Assembly (NCBI GenBank): GCA_000004695.1 | Contig: CM000152.2 | Location: 4,672,001-4,736,000, forward strand | DNA: 64,000 nucleotides | Source of the DNA: Dictyostelium discoideum | Lineage: Eukaryota | Reading direction: 5' to 3' | Shown: positions 5,792-61,269 of the stretch, piece by piece | How positions within the stretch are numbered: the stretch's first letter is position 1 | How the letters are laid out: every line of letters begins with the position of its first letter | The notes under the pieces: model-generated | Seen by the model: the letters and a program-made list of their open reading frames with translations, nothing else | Database searches by the model: none | What the model was told of the DNA's origin: nothing | Translations under genes and position numbers: made by a program

Positions 5792-11134
<5,343 letters not shown>

Positions 11135-11218: not shown

Positions 11219-11402
11219 GATTTTGATCAAAAAAAAAAAAGATTCTTAAAATTTTACCAAAAAAAAAAAAAAAAAAATAAAAAAAAATAAAATAAAATAA
11301 AATAAAAAAAAGGTTTAAGTTTCTAGGTGGATTCTTCATAATAAAAAGGTTTAAGTTTCTAGATTTTAAAATTCCTCAAACAAAACTTAAAATTTTAAGC
11401 CT

Positions 11403-11434
<32 letters not shown>

Positions 11435-11599
11435 TTAAAATAATTTTTTTTTTTTTTTATGAATTAATTTTTTTTTTATAAATAAATTTCGATTATTGCC
11501 CTTCTGCCAACTCATTTGTTACTGTTAGTTGTTATGATTCCGTTTAAAAATCTTTTGATGAAAAATTCAGCATCAGATTGATTTGCTCCTTTTTTAACA

Positions 11600-12420
11600 G
11601 TTTTGTTTTTGTATTTGATTGAAATGCATTGGTGGAACATCAACAATTCCAACAGATGTTGACGGTGAATACAATTTCAATGATTAATGACTTGTTTAAT
11701 GTTTTAGTTATTATTGTATCAAACAGTACAGATAATCTATTTGTCAATGATGGTAAATATTGTTTAACATTCACTGAGCCACAACCAATTGATAGAACTG
11801 ATTTCAATACAGGTTTTATATCAACTCCCAATACTTGCCAATACGTTTGGGTCAATAAAAATGACAATGGTAAGTAAGAATCAGATGAACCATGGTTATT
11901 ATTACAACTACAACTACTACAGCAACAGCAACAACTACAACAGCGACTACAGCAACAACAACAGCGACAACAACAACAGCGACAGATTATTTAACTTCAC
12001 AAACTCTATTTTAATAATGCTCAAACCCAAACCAGTTACTAAATAAGAGATAGGTTATGTATTCAATAGAAATTTAACTTTAGATGACAACAATTGGAAA
12101 GAATAGTAATGGTAATATTAATAGTAATAGCGTTAATAAGTAACAACAGCAACTAATAATAATAATAACCACAACAAATTCTATTTACAATATAATCAAA
12201 TCGGGCAACCAATGGAAATGTGTTATTTTGTGACTTTAAATCATCTATCAACTAAACTTTGTGGTGTGAATTAGTTTCAAAAGTACTTTTACTTATTAAT
12301 AAATAACCAAATTAGTAGTCGTTGTAATAGTGGTATTTTAGCAAAACTAAAAGTAAATAATCCATTAATTAAAAATAATAAACAAGTCATCTTAATAATA
12401 TGTATATTGACCAACAACAA
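11600..12420 (+). repeat. Repeat island A: non-AT-rich, coding-like but stop-ridden sequence homologous to island B. It contains a degenerate 82-aa ORF, a GGTAAGTAAG donor-like site and CAA/CAG tracts.
   Basis: See island B. This is an abrupt composition island inside ~90% AT intergenic DNA upstream of the FNIP-pseudokinase gene. No intact ORF or recognisable transposon protein. Confidence 0.35.
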
Positions 12421-12570
12421 AAAAAAAAAAAAATTATAAAAAATAAAGATTTTTTTTTTTTTTATATAAACTGTTTATAAACCACCATTAAAATTGTGGG
12501 TTTATATAAAATAAACTAATTGATTTGGTTTCTGTTTATGAAATAATGATAATTCCTTTATTACACTTAA

Positions 12571-12930
12571 AATAGAAAATTTCCAATAGTAAAGTTTTTT
12601 GGTACTGATGATCCACTGGTGCCCAAACCATTTATAGATTTACATATAAAACTTTTTAAACCAAATATAATTTATATGTGTAAAGGTGCTGGTCATTCTA
12701 TACATGTTGAAGATCCTGAAAGATTTAATAAACTATCAATGGAATTCATTGATTCTGCAAATCATTATAAATCAGATACAATTGATTCAAAAGAAAAAAA
12801 TCAATTTTTTGTAACAAAATTTTTACAGTATAATGCTAACCATATAATACCATCATCAGGTAACCCATTCCCATTAAAAAATTCAAGATTATTTTCATTT
12901 TTACCAAAAATAATTAATTATTTAAAATAA
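12571..12930 (+). pseudogene. Orphan C-terminal fragment of an alpha/beta-hydrolase fold protein (catalytic-His region). No upstream exons could be found.
   Basis: Open frame KFFGTDDPLVPKPFIDLHIKLFKPNIIYMCKGAGHSIHVEDPERFNKLSMEFI matches the abhydrolase C-terminus (GTDD..VP...AGH...E.P..F). The 1 kb upstream has no GxSxG exon and is full of stops. It lies next to repeat island A. Confidence 0.3.
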
Positions 12931-13429
12931 TAAAAAAATAATTAAAATTATTAATAATAAATTTTGGATTTTGTTTTATTGATTTATAATTAATTTATTT
13001 TTAAGTATTTATATTAGAATATATTCTTATTTTTATTTTTTTTTATTATATATAAATACTATTATTTATCTTTATTTCCAATTACCAATCAAAATTTATT
13101 TAATTACATAAAAAATTAAAATTATCTGTTTGTGTGCTAAATAACCACAAAAAAATAAAAAAATGAAAAAAGGCTTCAGAAAAATTGGTTTACTCGCTTG
13201 GATTATTTAAAAATGCTTTTAAAAATCTAAAAGATTTTATTTTTGGTAATCCTACATTTAAACTTGAAATTAAAAATAATTAAAAAAATAAAATAGAACA
13301 AATGTAATTGTAGAAAATAAAAATAACTGAAGAAACAAAAAGAGTTGGGAAAAAATAAAAAAAAAAAAAAATTAAAAAATAAAAAAAAAAAAAAAATAAA
13401 AAAATCTTTTTTTTTTTTCAGTTAAGAAA

Positions 13430-29245: not shown

Positions 29246-30733
29246 TTACCATAAATTGTTATCATTTCTAGCCATGTAAACATAACCATCCATACCCCAG
29301 TTAGTTGACCAAGAGTTTTTAACTAAGAAATAATCTTGACCTTGATAAGTACCATAACCAATAGCTAAAACTTCGTGATCCAAATCATCTAAACCATTTT
29401 TACAGGCTGGATTATTGTAAACACCAGACATGTAGTAACGGAAATCATCAACAGAGGCATCGATGGCGATGGCGACTGGACCAGTGGTGGCGATAGCGTT
29501 TTGAAGGGCAGATTCACTACCAGAGGTAACATTGACGTAACCAGTGATTGAAACACCTGATGGAGTGACAGTTCTATCTCTGCAGAGACCATTTTGCATT
29601 AAGTATGGATAGTTGGACTCGGTGGCGAGACTACCAATTTCCATGACGTATTGGAATGCAGATGATGCAAAACCACCACCACAACCTTGACTACCGGTAA
29701 GGATAGCACAATCAACTAATTGTTGTTCAGAGAGGGAGACTAATTCACCGTTGGTGACACAGTTGGTACCTTCTAATGAACCAGTTGAACCAAAAGTCCA
29801 ACATGAACCGCAAATACCTTGATCTTTGACTGGGGTAACACAGTTTTGATTTCTCCAATCGACAGTTGATGGAATTGATCTGAGTGATTCGTCGTCGTGG
29901 ACAGAGTCAGCACCAGTGACGGATGGACGGGCAACCTTTGGTTTAACTAAGGTGTTGAATTCTTTGTTGCTTAAATCGGCATAGTGATTCATACCTAATT
30001 TGTATGAGGATTCTTTGGCATTGTGGGTGGCAATGATTTTACGGGCAGCTTTAAAGTTAATGAAACGTTCATCATGTTCGTCTTGGCTTGAGTATTCCTT
30101 GTTGTATTGAGCTTTGTATTCTTTGAATAAGTTTGAGGCTTGTTCTTCTTTGGCTAATAAGTTATCACCGATTGATGAGAAAAGACCATCGAATTGGTTT
30201 TCTTTAGCTGGGGCTTCCTTTGCGTTATTACAGAGAACTGGAATATCAAAGTATGATTCGTATGAGCTGATATCGGTGGTGTAGATATCAAAGTTTAATA
30301 CGTAAACATCTGGGTGACTACCAAATACATAATCGACACCATCCATATAGAATTGAACTGGAACACCGTTGGCATCAACGTAAAAGTTGTAGAAACCAGT
30401 ACGACCATATTGAGTGATCTTTTGACTGTAACCAAAGACTTGGACACCGTTAACAGTTGATGTACCATTGTAAACCCATGATGAAGGTTCAGTTGGTAAA
30501 ACATTAACTAATGAACCATTACCTGGGGTAGTGGTACAAACCATATCATATTTAACTGGACCTACATTGTATGTATTATCTTGATTGTAAAAGTTGATGG
30601 TAATATCCATACCATTGTAAACACTAATATATTGACGATTATTAACTGAATCATAAATTAATTCAATTGGTTCAACAATATTGAAATATGGAATATTGAA
30701 TGAACCTTTCATATAATACTTTTAATAATAATA

Positions 30734-37075: not shown

Positions 37076-39232
37076 ATGACAATAACAAGTCCAGTAATTA
37101 AAACGCCACCATTAAATTCAGAGATTAGACTTGAATCAAATTTAACAGTTGAATCAGGTGATATTGAAATTAATGAAAAAGATATTGTAAATGCATCGGA
37201 AGTAATAGTAATTTTAGATGCAGGATCGCAATATAGTAAAGTGATTGATAGAAGAGTTAGAGAATTAAATGTTGCATCAGAAATTCATCCATTAAATATA
37301 GATTTATTAGAATTAATTAAGATTAAATCAAAATCAGGATCAACTATTAAAGGTATAATTATCTCTGGTGGTCCAGAGAGTGTCTATGGTGAGAATGCAC
37401 CAAAATTCGATAAATCATTATTCTCTGAGAAATTAAATTTACCAATATTTGGTATTTGTTATGGTATGCAATTAATGAATTATATATTTGGTGGAAAGGT
37501 TGAAAGTAATTCACAACGTGAAGATGGTGTGCACAATATTGAGATTTTAAAAGATGAAAATCAACAACTTGTTTCAAAACTATTTAAAAATTTAAATCAA
37601 ACCGAGCAAGTTTTATTAACACATGGTGATAGTGTTACAAAGATTGCAGATGGATTTAAAATCATTTGTAAATCAGACGATGGTATTGTATCAGGTATTG
37701 AGAATGAAAGATTGGGCTATTATGGCGTGCAATTCCATCCAGAGGTTGATTTAACTACCAACGGTAAGAAAATGTTTTCAAACTTTTTAATTGACATTTG
37801 TGGTTGTAGTGCAAATTATACATTGGATGATCGTGAACAACAAGCAATCACCTATATCAAATCTATAGTTTCAAATAAAAAAGTATTGGTTTTAGTATCG
37901 GGTGGTGTAGATTCAACAGTTTGTGCAGCATTAATTTCAAAAGCAATTGGTCCTGAAAATGTTATTGCATTACATATTGATAATGGTTTCATGAGAAAAG
38001 ATGAGAGTTTAAATGTTGAAAAGGCATTATCAGTATTGGGTCTACATTTGATTGTTGTTGACGCATCTCAAACATTTTATAATTCAACCACCACTATCAA
38101 AGGCCATTTAACCTCATCGTTGAAAGAAACAATATCACCAGAAGAAAGAAGAAAAATCATTGGTGATACTTTTATGAGAGTTGCAGAGAATGAAGTTAAG
38201 AAATTAGGTTTACAACCAGAGGATGTTTATTTAGCCCAGGGTACACTTCGTCCAGATTTAATTGAATCTTCAAGTAAAACAGTTAGTGGTGTTGCCGATG
38301 TTATTAAAACTCATCATAATGATACAGAATTGGTTAGAATCCTTAGAGATTCAGGTAGAGTAGTTGAGCCATTAAAAGATTATCATAAAGATGAAGTTAG
38401 AGAATTAGGTAAATCATTAGGTCTTTCAGATTCTTTGGTATGGCGTCAACCTTTCCCTGGCCCAGGTTTAGCAATTCGTATCATTTGTGCTGATGAACCT
38501 TATCTAGTGAATTATGATTTTACAAATAATGTCGTGCAATATTTAGTAACCGGTGAAGCTTCCTCAGAGTTGGAATCAGAAGTTAAAATTAAAATTGATA
38601 AACAATTAACAGAGATGAAATGTAAACGTCAAGATAAAATTACAATTAAACCAGTTTTATTACCAATTCAAACTGTTGGTGTTCAAGGTGATGGTAGAAC
38701 TTATTCTTATTTATTAGGTCTTTATAGTTCAGAGAATTCAACAATCGACCAAATTCCTTGGTCTTATATTTTCAATTTAGCTAGAACTATACCAAAGATT
38801 TGTCATAATATAAATAGAGTGGTTTTCATTTTCTCTCAAAATGCTACTAAACATACAAATATTAAAGTTTCAAATGAACCAGTTAAACATATCACACCAA
38901 CTCGTTTAACTCCTGATGTTATTAAACAACTTCAACATGCTGATTCAATAGTTTCAGAACAACTCTATAAATATAATTTAATTAAATCACTATCCCAAGT
39001 TCCCGTTGTATCATTACCAATAGATTTCGGTGTTACAGGTAATAGATCAATCGCAATTCGTACTTTTATTACAAATGATTTCATGACTGGTGTTCCTGCG
39101 ATTCCTGGTAAAAATATTAGTTTCGATTGTTTACAAGAAATTACAAATAATATTTTAACTTCTGTAAATGGTATTTCAAAAGTTTTATTTGATTGTACTT
39201 CAAAACCACCTGGTACTACTGAATTCTTATAA
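37076..39232 (+). CDS. guaA: GMP synthase [glutamine-hydrolysing], long eukaryotic type.
   Basis: The 718-aa single exon has a class-I GATase domain (ILDAGSQYSKVIDRRVRELNV, PIFGICYGMQLM with catalytic Cys, GVQFHPEV), an ATP-PPase (VLVLVSGGVDSTVCAAL) and the long C-terminal dimerisation domain typical of human GMPS. Confidence 0.9.
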   Translation: MTITSPVIKTPPLNSEIRLESNLTVESGDIEINEKDIVNASEVIVILDAGSQYSKVIDRRVRELNVASEIHPLNIDLLELIKIKSKSGSTIKGIIISGGPESVYGENAPKFDKSLFSEKLNLPIFGICYGMQLMNYIFGGKVESNSQREDGVHNIEILKDENQQLVSKLFKNLNQTEQVLLTHGDSVTKIADGFKIICKSDDGIVSGIENERLGYYGVQFHPEVDLTTNGKKMFSNFLIDICGCSANYTLDDREQQAITYIKSIVSNKKVLVLVSGGVDSTVCAALISKAIGPENVIALHIDNGFMRKDESLNVEKALSVLGLHLIVVDASQTFYNSTTTIKGHLTSSLKETISPEERRKIIGDTFMRVAENEVKKLGLQPEDVYLAQGTLRPDLIESSSKTVSGVADVIKTHHNDTELVRILRDSGRVVEPLKDYHKDEVRELGKSLGLSDSLVWRQPFPGPGLAIRIICADEPYLVNYDFTNNVVQYLVTGEASSELESEVKIKIDKQLTEMKCKRQDKITIKPVLLPIQTVGVQGDGRTYSYLLGLYSSENSTIDQIPWSYIFNLARTIPKICHNINRVVFIFSQNATKHTNIKVSNEPVKHITPTRLTPDVIKQLQHADSIVSEQLYKYNLIKSLSQVPVVSLPIDFGVTGNRSIAIRTFITNDFMTGVPAIPGKNISFDCLQEITNNILTSVNGISKVLFDCTSKPPGTTEFL

Positions 39233-39307: not shown

Positions 39308-40233
39308 TTATAATAATTTAATGAAATCAAATGTTTGAACATCATTTGTGTTTGTGATAGATTTGAAAGTGATGACAATGTTGCCAGATTCGAATGACCA
39401 TGACCAATATCCACTCAAGTTTGCATCATGTTTGATTACAATTGTATGATTTGAAGTTGCTTCTTGAACTGCTTCTAAAATCATTTCATCTGAACAACGT
39501 TTTGCAAGATTTGCAGCAACTTTTTCAACAATACCTGCAAAGATATGACCGAAACTATTCTTTAAATCATCAGCAACTTTTGGATAAACTTCTTGTAATG
39601 ATGTTTCATCAATTGACCAATCAGCTGATGATTTTAATGCTTTTTTGACAGCTGCTAAATTATCTTTCATTTTTTGTTCATTTGTTTTAATATTTAAACG
39701 AGTGCTTAAAGTGTAAACACCTTGAGTTGGAATAATTGTTTCTAATTTAAAAGTATTTACATCATTTGTGTTGCAAATCTTTGGACGGAATAAAATTTGA
39801 CAATCACCATTTTCAAATTGGAATTTCCAGTATGATGATAATTTTTCATCAGCACAAATAAAAACAAATTTCTTATTTGGAACAGCTGCTAAAAATGCTT
39901 CTTTAATTAATGGATCGGCTCCGACTTTAGCCATGTTTTTAGCAAGATTACCAACTACATCTTTATAAAAGATACTACCACAACTATTTGTAACCCAAGA
40001 GTCATTACATTTTGTAATAATATCTTCAAAATCAAATTCAATAGCAAAAGCTTCACCTAATGATTTTTCAATTGCAGCTAAATTTGTTTTTAAAGATTCT
40101 TCATTATCTTTTAATGATTTTCTAAAAATTTAAAAAAAGTTTGAATAAATATTTTAAATATTAAATATTAAATATCTTTTTTTTTTTTTAATTTTATTTT
40201 TAATAAATACCTTGAAGTTAAAGCGAGAGGCAT
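39308..40233 (-). CDS. Uncharacterised 278-aa protein with an internal two-fold repeat; copy A of a tandem gene pair. Two exons: 40211..40233 and 39308..40121.
   Basis: Exon 1 (MPLALTS-R) ends at an AGgtattt donor; a ttttag acceptor reconstitutes AGA. Exon 2 reads KSLKDNEESLKTNLAAIEKSLGEAF...MAKVGADPLIKEAF...YWKFQFENGDCQILFRPKICNTNDVNTFKLE...(second half)...YWSWSFESGNIVITFKSITNTNDVQTFDFIKLL. The two halves are homologous. No family assigned. Confidence 0.65.
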
Positions 40234-41357
40234 TTTGGGTTAATAGTTTATTTTTTTATTTATTTATTTTTTTTAAATAAGAGTTTATTATTTTTTAATG
40301 TTTGATCGAATGATTTTTAAAAAAAAAACATAGTGCTTTTATATTAAAAAAAATGAAATGGATCAGGGAAATTAGAAAAAAAAAAGATTTGAAAAAACAG
40401 AAACAATTTGAAATGGAAAATAATCAAAAAATAAAATATCTTTTGGGATATTTTTTTTTTTTTTTCTAATTTTTTTTTAGTTTTTTTTTTTTTTTTTTAA
40501 TCTTTTAATTGATTAAAAAGAAAAAAAAAAAAAAAATAAAAGAATTAAATTAGTTTTTTTTTTTTTTTAAATGATATTAATAATTATTTAAATTAAATTG
40601 ATTAGAAAGAAAAAATTAAAGATATATTTAATATCAATAAAAAAGGTGAAATAAAATATAATTTGAAATTTAATTTTTTTTTATTTTTGTATTTACAATA
40701 GCTTATTTTAAAGTTTTTTGAATAAGGACGAAATTTATGAATTATCCATTTTAAATTCCAACACGAGTAAAGGTTTCCACCAAAGTATGTGTATATATCT
40801 TTACTTCAGATAATAAGGAAACATTATTATTTAATTGAGATGTTCCAGTAATTATAGTTCCTGATATATAATTGGTTTGTGAAACATTTTTGATATTGTT
40901 AATTGAATTAAATGATTCTATTATTTTTTAAAATTTTTTTTTTTTTAAATTAGTTTATAATTTAATATTATTAAATCTTTATTTTTCTTTAATTTTTTTT
41001 TTTTTTTTTAATTAAAACTTACTAAATAACATTTTATAATTTTTTATAATTTAAACTAAAATAGTACTTTTATTGTAATGAATTAGTTTGAAAATAATTT
41101 TTCATTTTATAGTTTTTTTTTTTAAGTACTAAGTAATTTTAATTTTTTTAAAATTTCCTTAAAAAATTATCTATTATAAATTATGAATCTGTTATCATTT
41201 TTATTTTTAAAATATTGTCAAAAAACCACAACTCATCTTTTAATAATTTTTAAGTGTTAAAAGATTTTAAAAAATTTAAAAAAGTTGAAAATAAAAATAT
41301 TTTTGTATTTTGTGGTAAATGTGATAATTTTAAAAAATTAATTTTTACAAATTTTAT

Positions 41358-42263
41358 TTATAATAATTTAATGAAATCAAATGTTTGAACATCATTTGTG
41401 TTTGTGATAGATTTGAAAGTGATGACAATGTTGCCAGATTCGAATGACCATGACCAATATCCACTCAAGTTTGCATCATGTTTGATTACAATTGTATGAT
41501 TTGAAGTTGCTTCTTGAACTGCTTCTAAAATCATTTCATCTGAACAACGTTTGGTAAGATTTGCAGCAACTTTTTCAACAATACCTGCAAATATATGACC
41601 GAAACTATTCTTTAAATCATCAGCAACTTTTGGATAAACTTCTTGTAATGATGTTTCATCAATTGACCAATCAGCTGATGATTTTAATGCCTTTTTAACA
41701 GCTGCTAAATTATCTTTCATTTTTTGTTCATTTGTTTTAATATTTAAACGAGTGCTTAAAGTGTAAACACCTTGAGTTGGAATAATTGTTTCTAATTTAA
41801 AAGTATTTACATCGTTTGTGTTGCAAATCTTTGGACGGAATAAAATTTGACAATCACCATTTTCAAATTGGAATTTCCAGTATGATGATAATTTTTCATC
41901 AGCACAAATAAAAACAAATTTCTTATTTGGAACAGCTGCTAAAAATGCTTCTTTAATTAATGGATCGGCTCCGACTTTAGCCATGTTTTTAGTAAGATTA
42001 CCAACTACATCTTTATAAAAGATACTACCACAACTATTTGTAACCCAGGAGTCATTACATTTTGTAATAATATCTTCAAAATCAAATTCAATAGCAAAAG
42101 CTTCACCTAATGATTTTTCAATTGCAGCTAAATTTGTTTTTAAAGATTCTTCATTATCTTTTAATGATTTTCTAAAAATTTAAATAAATATAATTAGTTA
42201 CAATTTATTTTAATAAATTAAAAATAAAAATAATAATTACCTTGAAGTTAAAGCGAGAGGCAT
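41358..42263 (-). CDS. Copy B of the tandem gene pair, 2050 bp from copy A. Two exons: 42241..42263 and 41358..42171.
   Basis: The exons are about 99% identical in nucleotide sequence to copy A, with two Ala-to-Thr replacements (NLAK to NLTK in both repeat halves) and a few synonymous changes. The 69-nt intron is unrelated in sequence to copy A's 89-nt intron. Confidence 0.65.
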
Positions 42264-55361: not shown

Positions 55362-55600
55362 GAAAATATTATTGGTGGTCGATTTTTCTTTAGTTTTTAG
55401 GAAACTTTTTTTTTAAAGAGATTACTGTTGGTGCTCAAGATATTTCTTTAGGTTTTAGGAAACTTTTTTTTTTAAAAGAGATTATTATTGGTGCTCAAGA
55501 TATTTCTTTAGGTTTTAGGAAACTTTTTTTTTAAAGAGATTACTGTTGGTGCTCAAAATATTGCTTTAGTTTTTAGGAAACTTTTTTTTATTTTGAAAAC
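55362..55600. repeat. Minisatellite of about 59 bp in 4 tandem copies (unit roughly AAAGAGATTACTGTTGGTGCTCAAGATATTTCTTTAGGTTTTAGGAAAC(T)n).
   Basis: Four contiguous copies at 85-95% identity, immediately upstream of the duplicated promoter of SAP-family copy 1. Confidence 0.8.
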
Positions 55601-55822
55601 TCCCATTTTTTTTTTTATTACAAAATGTTTTTTCGTTTTTTCTCAAATCTGAAACCTTTTTATTTCTCAAATACCCAAGAATTATTTACTTTTTTTTTTT
55701 TTTTTTTTTTTATTTATTTTTTTTTTTATTTATTTATTTTTTTTTTTTTTTTTTTTTGTAATCATCCAAGATAATATTGAAACTATTTATTTATACAAAT
55801 AAAAAAAAAAAAAAAAAAAAAA

Positions 55823-56653
<831 letters not shown>

Positions 56654-56799
56654 TGAAAAAATAAATAAATAATAAAATAAAAATAAATTAATTAATAAAA
56701 AATAAAAATTTAATAAATAATAAAAAATAATGATTAGTTAATCAATCTATAGATATTTTCAAAAAAAAGTTTATTTTATTTTATTCCTAATTATTTTTC

Positions 56800-57180
56800 A
56801 AAATTAAAAGAGTGAAATTTGAAGTGATTGATGTATGGATACTGAGTTTCGAATGCCACTAGAGTTGTTGCAATGAATGATACAATAATCACCCATGCCA
56901 ATAAAGTAATAGTTCCCATCGGAATCTGTTATTCTCTCTTACCATCATTATTCTTATCTAATGAATGGTACTACTAAAACAATATTTTATTTATTATTGA
57001 TTGCGTTAATTTGAAATAATATTCACCTGTGGATTCGACCACTGAATCATATGAAATTACAACAAATTGATATTGAAAACCGTCGATATCTGTTTGAATT
57101 GTTGATGTTTCACCATTACCACTGTGTGTATATTAAAATATACATGTTCCCATGAAACAACTTAATCTCAAACCTTTAAC
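56800..57180 (-). repeat. Repeat island B: a non-AT-rich, degenerate coding-like element (minus orientation) homologous to island A at 11600..12420.
   Basis: The reverse complement of 57076..57120 (GGTAATGGTGAAACATCAACAATTCAAACAGATATCGACGG) matches 11631..11667 (GGTGGAACATCAACAATTCCAACAGATGTTGACGG) at about 33/38. A second block matches around ...AATGATGGTAAGAGAG versus AATGACAATGGTAAGTAAG. Frames are broken by stops. Confidence 0.4.
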
Positions 57181-57387
57181 AAGTATAAATTTTTTATATT
57201 ATTTATTTATTTCTTTTATTTTCTTTGTCTATATTAAATAATATCATTTGATTAAATGTAATATTTTTAATAAAAAAAAAAAACTCCCACCATTTTTTTA
57301 TTACAAAATGTTTTTTCGTTTTTTCTCAAATACCCAAGAATTATTTAATTTTTTTTTTTTTTTTTTTATTTATTTTTTTTTTTTATT

Positions 57388-57420
<33 letters not shown>

Positions 57421-57487
57421 TAATCATCCAAGATAATATTGAAACTATTTATTTATACAAATCAAAAAAAAAAAAAAAAAAAAAAAA

Positions 57488-57506
57488 ATGGGAGATGATG
57501 AAAGTG

Positions 57507-57557
<51 letters not shown>

Positions 57558-59902
57558 TTGGATGTAAAATTTTAAAAACAGTTATTAGTGGTAGGAGAAG
57601 TATATTATTGGAATCATATAATAATAATAATAAAAATAAAAATAATAATAATATTATTATTAAAAGCTATGAAGATGAATTTAATTTATTTAAATTAAAT
57701 AATAAAAAGGAGTTATCAATTGAAAAATTACAAACAATTGCAAAAGATAATGGATTACCATTTGATGAAAATGAAAATGATTTATATAATAGAATTGAAA
57801 TATATTATAATATTAAAATTAAATTAGAAAAAGAAGTTAAACAACAACATGATAATAATCCATTTAATAAAGGTCACCCAATATTATTAATTAATAATGA
57901 TAATAAAAATGAAATACTATTTTGGAAAGTTTTTAGAAATAAATTAATTTTTAAAAATATATTTTCAAATTTCAAATATTCAAATTTATTTAATTATTCA
58001 AGATTATTCTCAGTTTATAATATTTATAATGATTTTAATAATTGTATTGAAATCATTAGAGATAAAGTAAAATCAAATAGTTATTTAGCATTTGGTCATT
58101 GTTTAGATAATTTCAGTGGTTTGTCAACTATTTTAAAAAATATTAAAAAAGATACTCAAGAAAATCAATTATTTCATAACCGATTATTAAATAATTATTG
58201 TAATAAATTAATTCATGCTGGTAATTTTTTTAAAATTATTATTGAGTCATTTAATTTGTTAGCATTAAAATCATTTTTTAATAATAAAACTTTAAAAATT
58301 AAAAAAGTTAAAATTAATTTTGAAATTAATAAAATTTCAGAATTAAAATTTTTAGAATATTTATTTAATAATCATAAAGAATATATTGAAATTCAAAAAA
58401 TAATTATCACTATTTTAAAACCAAATATATTTGAAAAATTTAAATTGGGTGAATTAATAAAATTGGTTATGATATTATATGATGATGAAATTTACACAAA
58501 AATTGAAAAACTAGATAATTTAAAAAATAAATTAATATATAATAAAATTAAAGAATTTCAATTTTCAGATAAAGAATTAAATGAAAATTTATTAACACTT
58601 TTAAAACCAGTCACTAAATCAGACAGATTTTACATAAAATTAAATGATAATTATAATAATAAATTAAACATAATTTTTAAATATATTAATATATTTTACA
58701 AATTAGTTGGAGGATCAACTATAAAACCATTTGAATATTATTTCACTCACATGGGTGAAAAAGAATTAATTGAAAACAAACCAAATGAAATCAATCAAAG
58801 GCAAACTAAAATGGTGATAAATTCAAATATTAAAAGAATTCTTTTAAAAAATAATAATGATACACATGAAACTATCAATAGTATTAAATCAATTGATATG
58901 TTGGATTCCCTTTTTAATAATTATCAAGATCAATTTTTTAAAGATAGAAATGAAAATTGGAAATATGTTAATAGTATTACAATTTTAAAACATTATGAAA
59001 AATTAATGCTATCATTAGGTAGAAAATTTTCATTTAATAATTCTAATGTTATTGAGATTGGGTCAAAAGGAATTCAATCAAAATTATATTTAATAGCAAT
59101 TAATAATCCATCATTATATCAAGTAATTGGTGAAAAAAAAAAAAAAAAGGATTATGTTTTAAATTTAAATTTTATTGCCTTTCCAGGCAAATTAACTTTT
59201 ATATCATTAATAGAATCGAATTATTTTAAAAATATTAAAATTTCAGAATCCTTAGAATTTACTAAATATATTACTATATCAAGATGGATTTCAGATAATT
59301 GTATTTCAATTTTTTCTGATAATAATAAACCTGAAATTTATATTCAATTACCAAATTTAAAAAAAATTAATATTGTTAGTGGAATAAGTAGTGGTAGTGG
59401 TATAAGTAGTGGTAGTGGTGGTAATGATGGGAAAATTAAAATTATTTTAGATCAACTTCAATTAGTTCAAATTTTATATAATTCAAATCGTATTGATGAT
59501 ATTTTTAAAATTAAAAATTTAGATAGTAATATAATTACTAGTTTTATTAAAAATATAAGTCCACATATTTCATTAGATTTCGTTAATAGATTAATTATTA
59601 GAGGATATTTTAATAATTATCAAAAAAAAAATAATTTTTTAAATCAAATAGTTTTAAATAATAATCTTCCAATTATTAAATTTTTATATTTAAATCATAG
59701 TAGTTGTTTCTTTTATTATAATTTAAAAGATTTACTTTTATTAGCAATTAGTAATGATAATTATCAAATAGCTGAACTTTTTTTTGTATTTTGTAACTTT
59801 ACAAGAAAAGAATTGAAATCAGTAATAAAAACAAAATTTTCATTAATAGAACTAATCCATGGAAATAAATTAAAATTAGGAATAGAAATAATAAAAAAAT
59901 AA
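57488..59902 (+). CDS. SAP-family paralog copy 2 (804 aa), full length.
   Basis: MGDDESDN plus poly-Asn, then the [20 protein letters not shown] segment shared with the gene at 5792..11134. Next comes a SAP-like helix-extended-helix ([33 protein letters not shown]), then the family core ([75 protein letters not shown]). Single exon. Confidence 0.7.
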
Positions 59903-59970: not shown

Positions 59971-60143
59971 AAAGGAATAATTTTTTTTTATTTAGAAATA
60001 AAAAAAACTTCAAAAATTAGTGAAAAATAATAATAAATGTTTTTATCTATTTTTTTATTTAATATAGTTATAAAACCTCATTATTTGGGAAATTTTTTTT
60101 TTTTTTTTTTTTTTGATCAACCTAATGCCTAAAATAAATAATA

Positions 60144-60730
60144 ATGAATAAAAGAACAAGAGATGGTAACCAAGAATTTGGTGATAAAAAATTAAAAGAA
60201 AATAATTATAATGACAAAGATAATAATATTAAAAATAATGAATTTAAATCATTTAAATCAGAATAAAGAAGAGTTAACAATTGAAGAATTACAAACAATT
60301 GAATTAGATAATGGATTACCATTAAATGGTGATGAAAATGAATTGTGATAATAGAATTTAACAATATTATAATATTAAAATTAAATTAGAAAAAGAATTT
60401 AAAAAACAACAAGATAATAACCCATTTAATAAAAGTCAACCAATATTATTAGTAATTAATAATGATAATAAAAATGAAATACTATTTTGGAAAGTTTTTA
60501 GAAATAAATCAATTTTTAAAAAGGTATTTTCAAATTTCAAATATTCAAATATATTTAATTATTCAAGATTATTCTCAGTTTATCATATTATTAAAGATTT
60601 TAGTAATGGTAGCTAGCTACTCCCCTCGAAGAGGGGATGGTTAGCGGTGCGACAGGGGGGAGGAGACAGGGGGAACTGAAATCATTAGAGATAAAGTAAA
60701 ATCAAATAGTTATTTATCTTTTATAAGATT
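60144..60730 (+). pseudogene. SAP-family pseudogene. It has in-frame stops and frameshifts and carries a 68-nt GC-rich insertion.
   Basis: MNKRTRDGNQEFGDKKLKENNYNDKDNN...FKSE-stop, then EELTIEELQTIELDNGLPLNGDENEL-stop-stop, then [62 protein letters not shown]. Next comes the GC-rich insert, then [14 protein letters not shown], and homology ends about 60730. Closest to copy 3 (MNKRTRDKND...). Confidence 0.6.
60610..60677. other. GC-rich (about 62% GC) 68-nt insertion with a perfect 7-bp hairpin (TCCCCTC-GAA-GAGGGGA) and a GCTAGC palindrome, interrupting the SAP-family pseudogene.
   Basis: GCTAGCTACTCCCCTCGAAGAGGGGATGGTTAGCGGTGCGACAGGGGGGAGGAGACAGGGGGAACT replaces a few bases between the ...DFNN and CIEIIRDK codons that are conserved in copies 2 and 3. 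No tRNA T-loop (box B) or other recognisable RNA motif. Confidence 0.6.
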
Positions 60731-61269
60731 ATTAATATTACGAGCATTAAAAAAAAAAATTAGAACAAACAACATTTAATTTTGTATTTAAACCATAAAA
60801 ATTCCTGCCTATTTAAAAAAAAAAAAAAAAAAAAAACAAATTAAAAGAGAATATATTTTAAAAAAAATAAAAAATAAACTTTATTTTATTACTATTAAAT
60901 TAAATATTATTGTTATTCTTAATCAAATATATTTTAACAAAAAAAAAAAAAAATAACCCCATCCAAATTAATAATAGACATTTTTTTATAGATCTATGAT
61001 ATTTGAAATTTGATTTAGAAAATTTTGAACATCTTTAAAAATAATATTTAGTTAAAAAAAATTAAATTTGAAAATAAAAAAAAAAAAGCCTTTTCGAATA
61101 TTTAAATTATCCTTTTGGCAATTAAACCCATTTATTTTTTTTTTTTTTAATTTTTTTTTATTTTATTTTATTTTTTTATTTTTTTTCTTTTTTTTTTTTT
61201 GGTAAGACCACTTTTTAATTTTTTTTTTATTTTTTTTATTTTTTTATTTTCAATAAATTGGTTAGAAAA

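Follow-up and report, generated by a model that had tools for sequence, protein, structure and literature searches.

The question raised by a 64,000-nucleotide stretch of chromosome 3 of Dictyostelium discoideum AX4 (assembly GCA_000004695.1, contig CM000152.2, positions 4,672,001 to 4,736,000 of the forward strand; hereafter the window) is the origin of two short islands, island A (11600–12420) and island B (56800–57180), each of which lies in very A/T-rich spacer DNA beside a truncated gene. A first-pass annotation had proposed a dispersed, degenerate mobile element or a pseudogene family. The comparisons described here indicate that both islands are, in all likelihood, pseudogene fragments of a gene with tandem SdrD_B/Cna_B-type β-sandwich repeats, of the type found in the giant colossin-like surface and matrix proteins of dictyostelids.

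The mean guanine–cytosine (GC) content of the window is 21%, with exons at 16–38% and spacers at 7–15%. The GC fraction is 0.284 in island A (0.325 over its core, 11490–12000) and 0.299 in island B, and falls to 0.07–0.15 in the flanks of both. The abrupt compositional step that had been described is therefore real, but the figure of 40–50% GC attached to it is not, the measured range being 28–33%; 100-nucleotide windows with a GC fraction of at least 0.40 make up 3–4% of island A and are absent from island B. This composition is exon-like and ordinary for exons in the D. discoideum genome. All reading frames of both islands are interrupted by stops, in agreement with the first-pass description of them as coding-like yet stop-ridden.

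Island A is composed of the following parts, in which L001 denotes the island A locus of D. discoideum assembly GCA_054859385.1, found through an automatic gene model, and shared blocks are those common to the two islands.

11490–11627, plus strand: left part of island A, coding-like, approximately 31% GC, reading CPSANSFVTVSCYDSV and then a stop.
11628–11684, plus strand: relic of the SdrD_B core motif, reading IGGTSTIPTDVDGEYNFND and then two stops; it holds shared block 1.
11710–11898, plus strand: best-preserved relic, reading IIVSNSTDNLFVNDGKYCLTFTEPQPIDRTDFNTGFISTPNTCQYVWVNKNDNGK, an in-frame stop and ESDEPWL.
11852–11903, plus strand: junction of an AX4-lineage deletion of approximately 540 nucleotides, a stretch that L001 keeps at 6164–6702.
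11904–11990, plus strand: (ACA/GCA)n tract of triplet repeats that is rich in threonine when read in one frame and is much longer in GCA_054859385.1.
11991–12572, plus strand: right part of island A, 20–29% GC.

The longest stop-free piece of island A (57 residues, 11704–11874) was used as a phmmer query in an exhaustive protein search, which returned 16 proteins at E <= 0.001. Nearly all of them are giants with 4–15 separate matched stretches, the signature of a repeat domain, and bacterial multi-repeat proteins are also among the matches. The best match, P0022, is a partial protein of 3208 residues from Polysphondylium violaceum, in which Pfam detects 24 SdrD_B stretches overlapping with CarboxypepD_reg, SpaA and Cna_B. 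In a tblastn comparison, residues 164–225 of P0022 align to 11710–11898 with 57% identity over 63 residues (E = 7e-21) and with the stop read through, CQYVWVNKNDNGK followed by the stop and ESDEPWL in island A being opposite GQYVWVDKNNNGQQDDDEPLL in P0022. This segment comprises the C-terminal half of one SdrD_B repeat and the start of the next. Within 11628–11684, TDVDGEYNFND aligns with TDADGKYNFSD of the same protein.

Island B is read on the opposite strand, in two frames.

56932–57129, minus strand: first frame, reading THSGNGETSTIQTDIDGFQYQFVVISYDSVVESTGEYYFKLTQSIINKILF, two stops and YHSLDKNNDGKRE; it holds shared blocks 1 (57115–57066) and 2 (57050–56997).
56876–56938, minus strand: shifted frame, in which a frameshift is followed by ERITDSDGNYYFIGMGDYCII, the core of the following SdrD_B repeat.

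The first frame covers the larger part of an SdrD_B repeat, which has lost 19 and 7 residues in two internal deletions and contains two stops; it continues into LDKNNDGKRE, the motif with which the following repeat starts, and aligns to residues 449–540 of P0022. The shifted frame shows 50–55% identity to several repeat cores of the same protein. A 42-residue 'membrane-like' open reading frame at 56791–56919 was considered as a transmembrane tail and rejected, as it is the same DNA as the repeat core read in the wrong frame.

The read-through translation of island B scores 46.0 bits against P0022, compared with maxima of 7.3 bits among 200 shuffles and 3.8 bits among 306 control translations from coding-like parts of the window. 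When all six frames of the 64 kb were scanned against P0022, only island A (197 and 123 bits) and island B (41.7 and 14.4 bits) scored. The P0022 units that match the islands are themselves SdrD_B repeats at 52 and 39 bits, above the Pfam gathering score of the family (PF17210; 29.7 bits). Moreover, the hallmark motifs of the repeat, sought as the start motif V-W-x-D-x-N-x-N-G and the core T-D-x-x-G-x-Y-x-F, are present and correctly ordered in island A (TDVDGEYNF, DGKYCLTF and YVWVNKNDNGK-stop-ESDEP) and in island B (TDIDGF, STGEYYF, LDKNNDGKRE and TDSDGNYYF...GDYCI). No AX4 reference protein matches either island in a word-indexed search with spliced conceptual translations; for island A that search yielded only two gene models, both orthologous, and island B drew no match. 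Among the predicted proteins of six Dictyostelium assemblies, four match island A and none matches island B.

The two islands are also related to each other as DNA. Shared block 1 (11630–11681 with 57115–57066, inverted) is 82.7% identical over 52 nucleotides, and its Smith–Waterman score of 57 compares with 23 ± 2.7 (maximum 37) for shuffles of island B and with a maximum of 33 when 48 real coding-like segments of the window served as controls. Shared block 2 (L001 6467–6520 with window 57050–56997) is 83% identical over 54 nucleotides (z = 12); it is collinear with block 1 in the same inverted sense, and its island A copy is deleted in AX4 and kept in GCA_054859385.1. Four of the ten codons that differ in block 2 are synonymous. 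The homology of islands A and B is secure, as it rests on two independent, collinear blocks of 83–89% identity.

The inverted similarity noted in the first-pass annotation (11631–11667 with 57076–57120) is thus genuine, at 83% identity rather than the 87% given there, and the test by which that annotation proposed to refute itself, an alignment no better than random, did not do so, as the score of 57 exceeds all controls. A second, 'GGTAAG'-containing block does not reach significance at the DNA level (z = 1.7); it falls on the conserved D-x-N-x-N-G motif of the repeat start in both islands. A supposed third look-alike at 40745–40920 does not hold up: its scores of 28 against island A and 27 against island B lie within the shuffle range (null maxima 38 and 37), and the six-frame window scan against P0022 gives it no protein-level signal. 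A further 'collinear' block (10677–10729 with 57283–57232) was rejected as untrustworthy A/T-rich spacer. The site of the third look-alike is the spacer between a tandem pair of 208-residue open reading frames (39308–39934 and 41358–41984, both on the minus strand), which match no Pfam family and have no exact match in the protein collection.

Five assemblies share an identical NAC protein next to the locus, through which the orthologous region of each was retrieved. All three D. discoideum genomes carry island A, in three different deletion states. The AX4 copy lacks the approximately 540 nucleotides that ACTFIR and ACTFIW keep. The ACTFIR copy lacks approximately 18 nucleotides of a repeat start motif kept in AX4, and its triplet repeat is much longer. 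The ACTFIW copy lacks approximately 160 nucleotides, including block 1. Alignments of the islands to P0022 contain internal stops, frame changes between consecutive pieces and deletions of 7–19 residues or more. Automatic annotation places gene models at island A (P0020 and P0021, with products of 101 and 124 residues) that differ in frame and in introns and coincide over the relic core alone. The strain-specific lesions and the conflicting models, together with the absence of the locus from a sister species (described below), point to relaxed constraint.

Assembly GCA_054859385.1, which is labelled D. discoideum, is only 92–95% identical to AX4 across the FNIP-repeat gene next to island A and its flanks (L001 and L017). 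This seems a high divergence within a species, and the assembly may represent a cryptic lineage.

Related relics are found at other loci of the sister species, Dictyostelium cf. discoideum, and two of the phmmer matches are short gene models of that species on contigs other than the syntenic one. At locus L003, a B-like stretch is followed 160 nucleotides further on, on the same strand, by an A-like stretch. The former corresponds to the 56932–57129 region (75.6% over 164 nucleotides, to 57076–56930) and the latter to 11716–11893 (81.6% over 179 nucleotides). The product predicted there, P0026, passes the SdrD_B cut-off with 36.9 bits and the conceptual translation of the locus with 38 bits; the locus is also stop-ridden and frameshifted. 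At locus L004, an A-like relic stands head-to-head with a B-box/FNIP-repeat gene, and the unit of gene and relic, approximately 4 kb, is tandemly repeated. Identity between the units is 91% for the FNIP parts and 81–87% for the relic parts, and one relic copy lacks 870 nucleotides. The end of locus L006 also carries a related copy. The only visible copying event, that at L004, is a segmental duplication with the relic as a passenger.

The left part of island A is found only in D. discoideum orthologues. The right part is approximately 78–83% conserved with respect to the other relic copies (L004 9230–9440 and 13244–13449 match 11905–12114), and it ends at the left breakpoint of an abhydrolase deletion in AX4. 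A run of 15 adenines follows island A at 12418–12432; poly(A) runs are ubiquitous in the spacer, and the homology with L004 ends earlier, near 12110. A processed pseudogene (retrocopy) would carry such a 3′ poly(A) tail at one point in every copy, together with a flanking target-site duplication, and no duplication was seen. In AX4, as at L004, a gene of the FNIP-repeat type (5792–10555, minus strand) lies head-to-head with the relic. In the spacer just upstream of island A, a 25-nucleotide direct repeat, ATAA(A/T)AAAAAGGTTTAAGTTTCTAG, occurs at 11302–11326 and 11338–11362 (96% identical, 36 nucleotides apart); its 15-mer GGTTTAAGTTTCTAG has no other occurrence in the window.

The truncated genes that adjoin the islands, and the duplicated promoter beyond island B, are the following.

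12574–12927, plus strand: orphan C-terminal fragment of an alpha/beta-hydrolase, residues 231–348 of 348, 91.5% identical to the intact gene of another strain.
55823–56653, plus strand: SAP-family copy 1, 276 residues, a truncated paralogue of copy 2 and neighbour of island B.
57293–57488, plus strand: promoter region of SAP copy 2, duplicating 55610–55823 upstream of copy 1, with a 39-nucleotide perfect match.

As the first-pass annotation had recognized, island A lies beside an orphan abhydrolase fragment, which is a neighbour of the relic and not part of it; the N-terminal part of the gene was found nowhere in the window. In the other four genomes, abhydrolase genes or fragments occupy the interval between the relic site and the zf-CHY gene, with three full tandem copies in three of the four. 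This three-gene array (338–352 residues each; L014, L016 and L017, 12000–18100) survives in a further two D. discoideum genomes and in one of D. cf. discoideum. In AX4 (window 12572–13200) and a near-identical assembly, only residues 231–348 of one copy are left. The left breakpoint of the deletion (12572–12574) coincides with the right edge of island A. The remaining fragment resembles the middle copy of the array more than the copy proximal to the zf-CHY gene, implying more than one deletion. The adjacency of island A and the abhydrolase fragment is the result of this later deletion in the AX4 lineage. Island A is also present in strains whose arrays are intact, so it was not the cause of the truncation.

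Island B occupies the interval from the stop codon of SAP copy 1 to the second promoter copy. The truncation of copy 1, which had also been reported correctly, is evident from its alignment to residues 136–414 only of the 804-residue copy 2; in AX4, a paralogue bears the name SAP DNA-binding domain-containing protein. Local rearrangement, as the first-pass annotation had suspected, is apparent at both sites, in the abhydrolase loss of AX4, the three deletion states of island A and the position of island B between a truncated copy and a duplicated promoter.

The SAP genes form a tandem array of copy 1, copy 2 (57488–59902), a fragment (approximately 60090–60780) and a further copy from approximately 61050 to beyond the end of the window. 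The copy number and structure of the array vary between strains and species (L005, L006 and L012, all of which begin downstream of island B). A 32-nucleotide direct repeat, ATATT(T/G)CTTTAG(G/T)TTTTAGGAAACTTTTTTTT, lies upstream of the promoter segment that is duplicated in the SAP array, and downstream of an ArfGAP gene (55500–55531 and 55558–55589, 94% identical). The FNIP gene by island A and the SAP gene by island B were considered as paralogues from an inverted segmental duplication, and this was rejected since they share only a patch of approximately 70 nucleotides. That patch is part of an inverted segment of approximately 125 nucleotides with 94% identity (8827–8952 in the FNIP gene, minus strand, and 57507–57631 in SAP copy 2). 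It consists of a poly-asparagine (AAT)n run and approximately 70 nucleotides of unique sequence at 97% identity, and encodes a peptide that ends in (R/S)ILL(K/E)SY. The segment falls in the middle of the 1587-residue FNIP-repeat open reading frame and at residues 25–44 of SAP copy 2, the two proteins being otherwise unrelated; a short stretch of coding sequence seems to have been exchanged or converted here recently.

Taken together, these observations argue strongly for the origin of both islands as fragments of a dead gene with tandem SdrD_B/Cna_B-type repeats, and the pseudogene family of the first-pass annotation is upheld by the disrupted relics in both islands and by their decayed relatives in the sister species. 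Each island would have retained approximately 1.5–2 repeats, interrupted by stops and frameshifts and by deletions between repeats that resemble one another, and island A would in addition have gained the expanded (ACA)n tract. The islands may still stand out from the A/T-rich spacer because they died too recently to drift to the 7–15% GC of neutral DNA. They would have no mechanism of their own and would simply reside in spacers prone to deletion and to segmental or tandem duplication; frequent events of this kind in the host spacers would explain why each island adjoins a truncated gene. We infer that the islands have no function and that the relics spread by segmental duplication, not by transposition.

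Three results weigh against this interpretation. First, the read-through translations miss the Pfam SdrD_B cut-off, island A reaching 17.3 bits and island B giving no match. As neither island passes alone, the family assignment rests on similarity to bona fide members; judged by that similarity, the islands appear to derive from the SdrD_B family and to be too decayed to qualify by themselves. Second, the left (11490–11627) and right (11991–12572) parts of island A have no match to dictyostelid repeat proteins or SdrD_B proteins. Third, no nucleotide or protein trace of island A was detected in the spacer that separates the FNIP gene from the abhydrolase array (0.7–1 kb, 12–14% GC) in either D. 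cf. discoideum genome. A later loss explains this absence, but so would an insertion in D. discoideum by an unknown route. In the alignment of the empty and filled sites, spacer identity is approximately 60%, near random, and insertion boundaries are not resolvable from it.

Such an insertion leads to a further, improbable reading: that island A is a recent arrival, colossin-type fragments having been moved between spacers by an uncharacterized route, for example transposon capture or templated 'filler' in break repair. This reading draws on the presence of island A in all three D. discoideum genomes, its absence from both D. cf. discoideum genomes and the copies of approximately 80% identity elsewhere in the latter. 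If the polarity were indeed that of an insertion, the route would explain the positions of the islands at rearrangement junctions.

A proposal that we regard as quite unlikely is that the islands stem from a dispersed mobile element, either as pieces of it or as gene pieces that it captured and moved, and that its insertions truncated the neighbouring genes. The related copies at non-syntenic D. cf. discoideum loci (L003, L004 and the end of L006), the presence or absence of island A between species, the rearranged sites of both islands and the poly(A) run at 12418–12432 would all suit it. However, Pfam scans of the island translations reveal no transposase, reverse transcriptase, integrase or gag, the only protein signal being SdrD_B, a host surface-repeat domain. 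A repeat search around both islands found no terminal inverted, long terminal or target-site repeats above the A/T-rich low-complexity background. Transfer RNA (tRNA) genes are the usual target of TRE and DGLT-A elements, and a tRNA scan detected none in the 64 kb. Furthermore, island A persists where the abhydrolase arrays are intact, few predicted-protein relatives exist across the six Dictyostelium assemblies, and poly(A) runs occur everywhere in spacer DNA. The copying that can be observed is a tandem segmental duplication, with the relic carried along in a unit of approximately 4 kb. The mobile-element half of the first-pass proposal is accordingly not sustained.

Automatic annotation treats island A as small functional genes, and the models P0020 and P0021, the exon-like GC content and the synonymous share of the codon differences in block 2 are what this would predict for the islands. 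There is little chance that it is correct: the two models disagree in frames and introns outside the relic core, the homology to the repeat domain continues past stops and from one frame into another, each strain has a different large deletion, the locus is wholly missing in the sister species, and island B has neither a gene model nor a protein match.

Still less probable is that islands A and B are halves of one repeat gene, split by an inversion of approximately 45 kb whose ends would lie near 11480 and 56790. If that inversion were reversed, the 3′ end of B would meet the 5′ end of A on one strand, and the resulting order of B then A matches that of the best P0022 units (approximately 449–583 for B and 565–653 for A) and that of L003. 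However, D. cf. discoideum keeps the order FNIP, abhydrolase, zf-CHY, NAC with no relic at the supposed breakpoint, island A in its undeleted form and island B overlap in content, each with blocks 1 and 2, and the repeat structure weakens any argument from order. Finally, chance resemblance of AT-poor stretches, which the shortness of the shared blocks (52 and 54 nucleotides) and the insignificance of the 'GGTAAG' block and third look-alike might suggest, is already refuted by the shuffle and control scores and the P0022 comparisons, as blocks 1 and 2 outscore shuffles by 12–15 standard deviations and clearly exceed the real coding segments used as controls, and both islands independently match one protein family that nothing else in the window matches.

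The islands are best described as a small pseudogene family in rearrangement-prone spacers, ordinary and previously unannotated. The practical value of the finding is modest. The 101- and 124-residue 'hypothetical proteins' called automatically in new Dictyostelium assemblies are probably artefacts, and the relics give minor evidence of dead copies left in the D. discoideum lineage by the Cna_B/SdrD_B (colossin-type) family. Moreover, AX4 lacks a three-gene alpha/beta-hydrolase array that natural isolates and the sister species keep, which may matter to users of the AX4 reference.

The remainder of the window contains, among others, the following genes.

29249–30712, minus strand: counting factor associated protein D (cfaD), an exact match to the AX4 protein.
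37076–39229: GMP synthetase (guaA), an exact match to the AX4 protein.
42928–44439: tRNA pseudouridine synthase, an exact match to the AX4 protein.

An Rfam scan of the window returned no match. A NADAR-domain gene of two exons (approximately 51990–52440, minus strand) has in its upstream spacer a near-perfect palindrome at 52705–52788 (41-nucleotide arms, 90% complementary, with 2 nucleotides between them).

Among known systems, the complex repeats of Dictyostelium comprise DIRS-1, Skipper, DGLT-A, TRE5/TRE3, Tdd, DDT and thug. The islands resemble these in being dispersed, often fragmentary, GC-richer than spacer and located at rearranged sites. They differ in having no transposon-type domain, terminal repeats or tRNA-gene association, and in that their content is a host surface domain. 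With the B repeats of bacterial SdrD and Cna-type adhesins (PF17210, SdrD_B; PF05738, Cna_B), the islands share a domain family at the profile level, whereas they are eukaryotic, non-functional fragments that fall below the Pfam cut-off alone.

The closest likeness is to the dictyostelid giants. [quoted passage not shown] The repeat domain of the colossin family (colA, DDB_G0292696 and relatives) and of KAF2069556.1 of P. violaceum is the same as that of the islands, the likeness to the colossins resting on this shared domain and on the P. violaceum protein. The giants carry tens to hundreds of repeats, whereas the islands hold their broken 1.5–2 repeats and, unlike the giants, lack a start codon, a signal peptide and an intact frame. 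The motifs T-x-T-D-x-x-G-x-Y-x-F and V-W-x-D-x-N-x-N-G-x-x-D-x-E of the giants are nevertheless recognizable in both islands.

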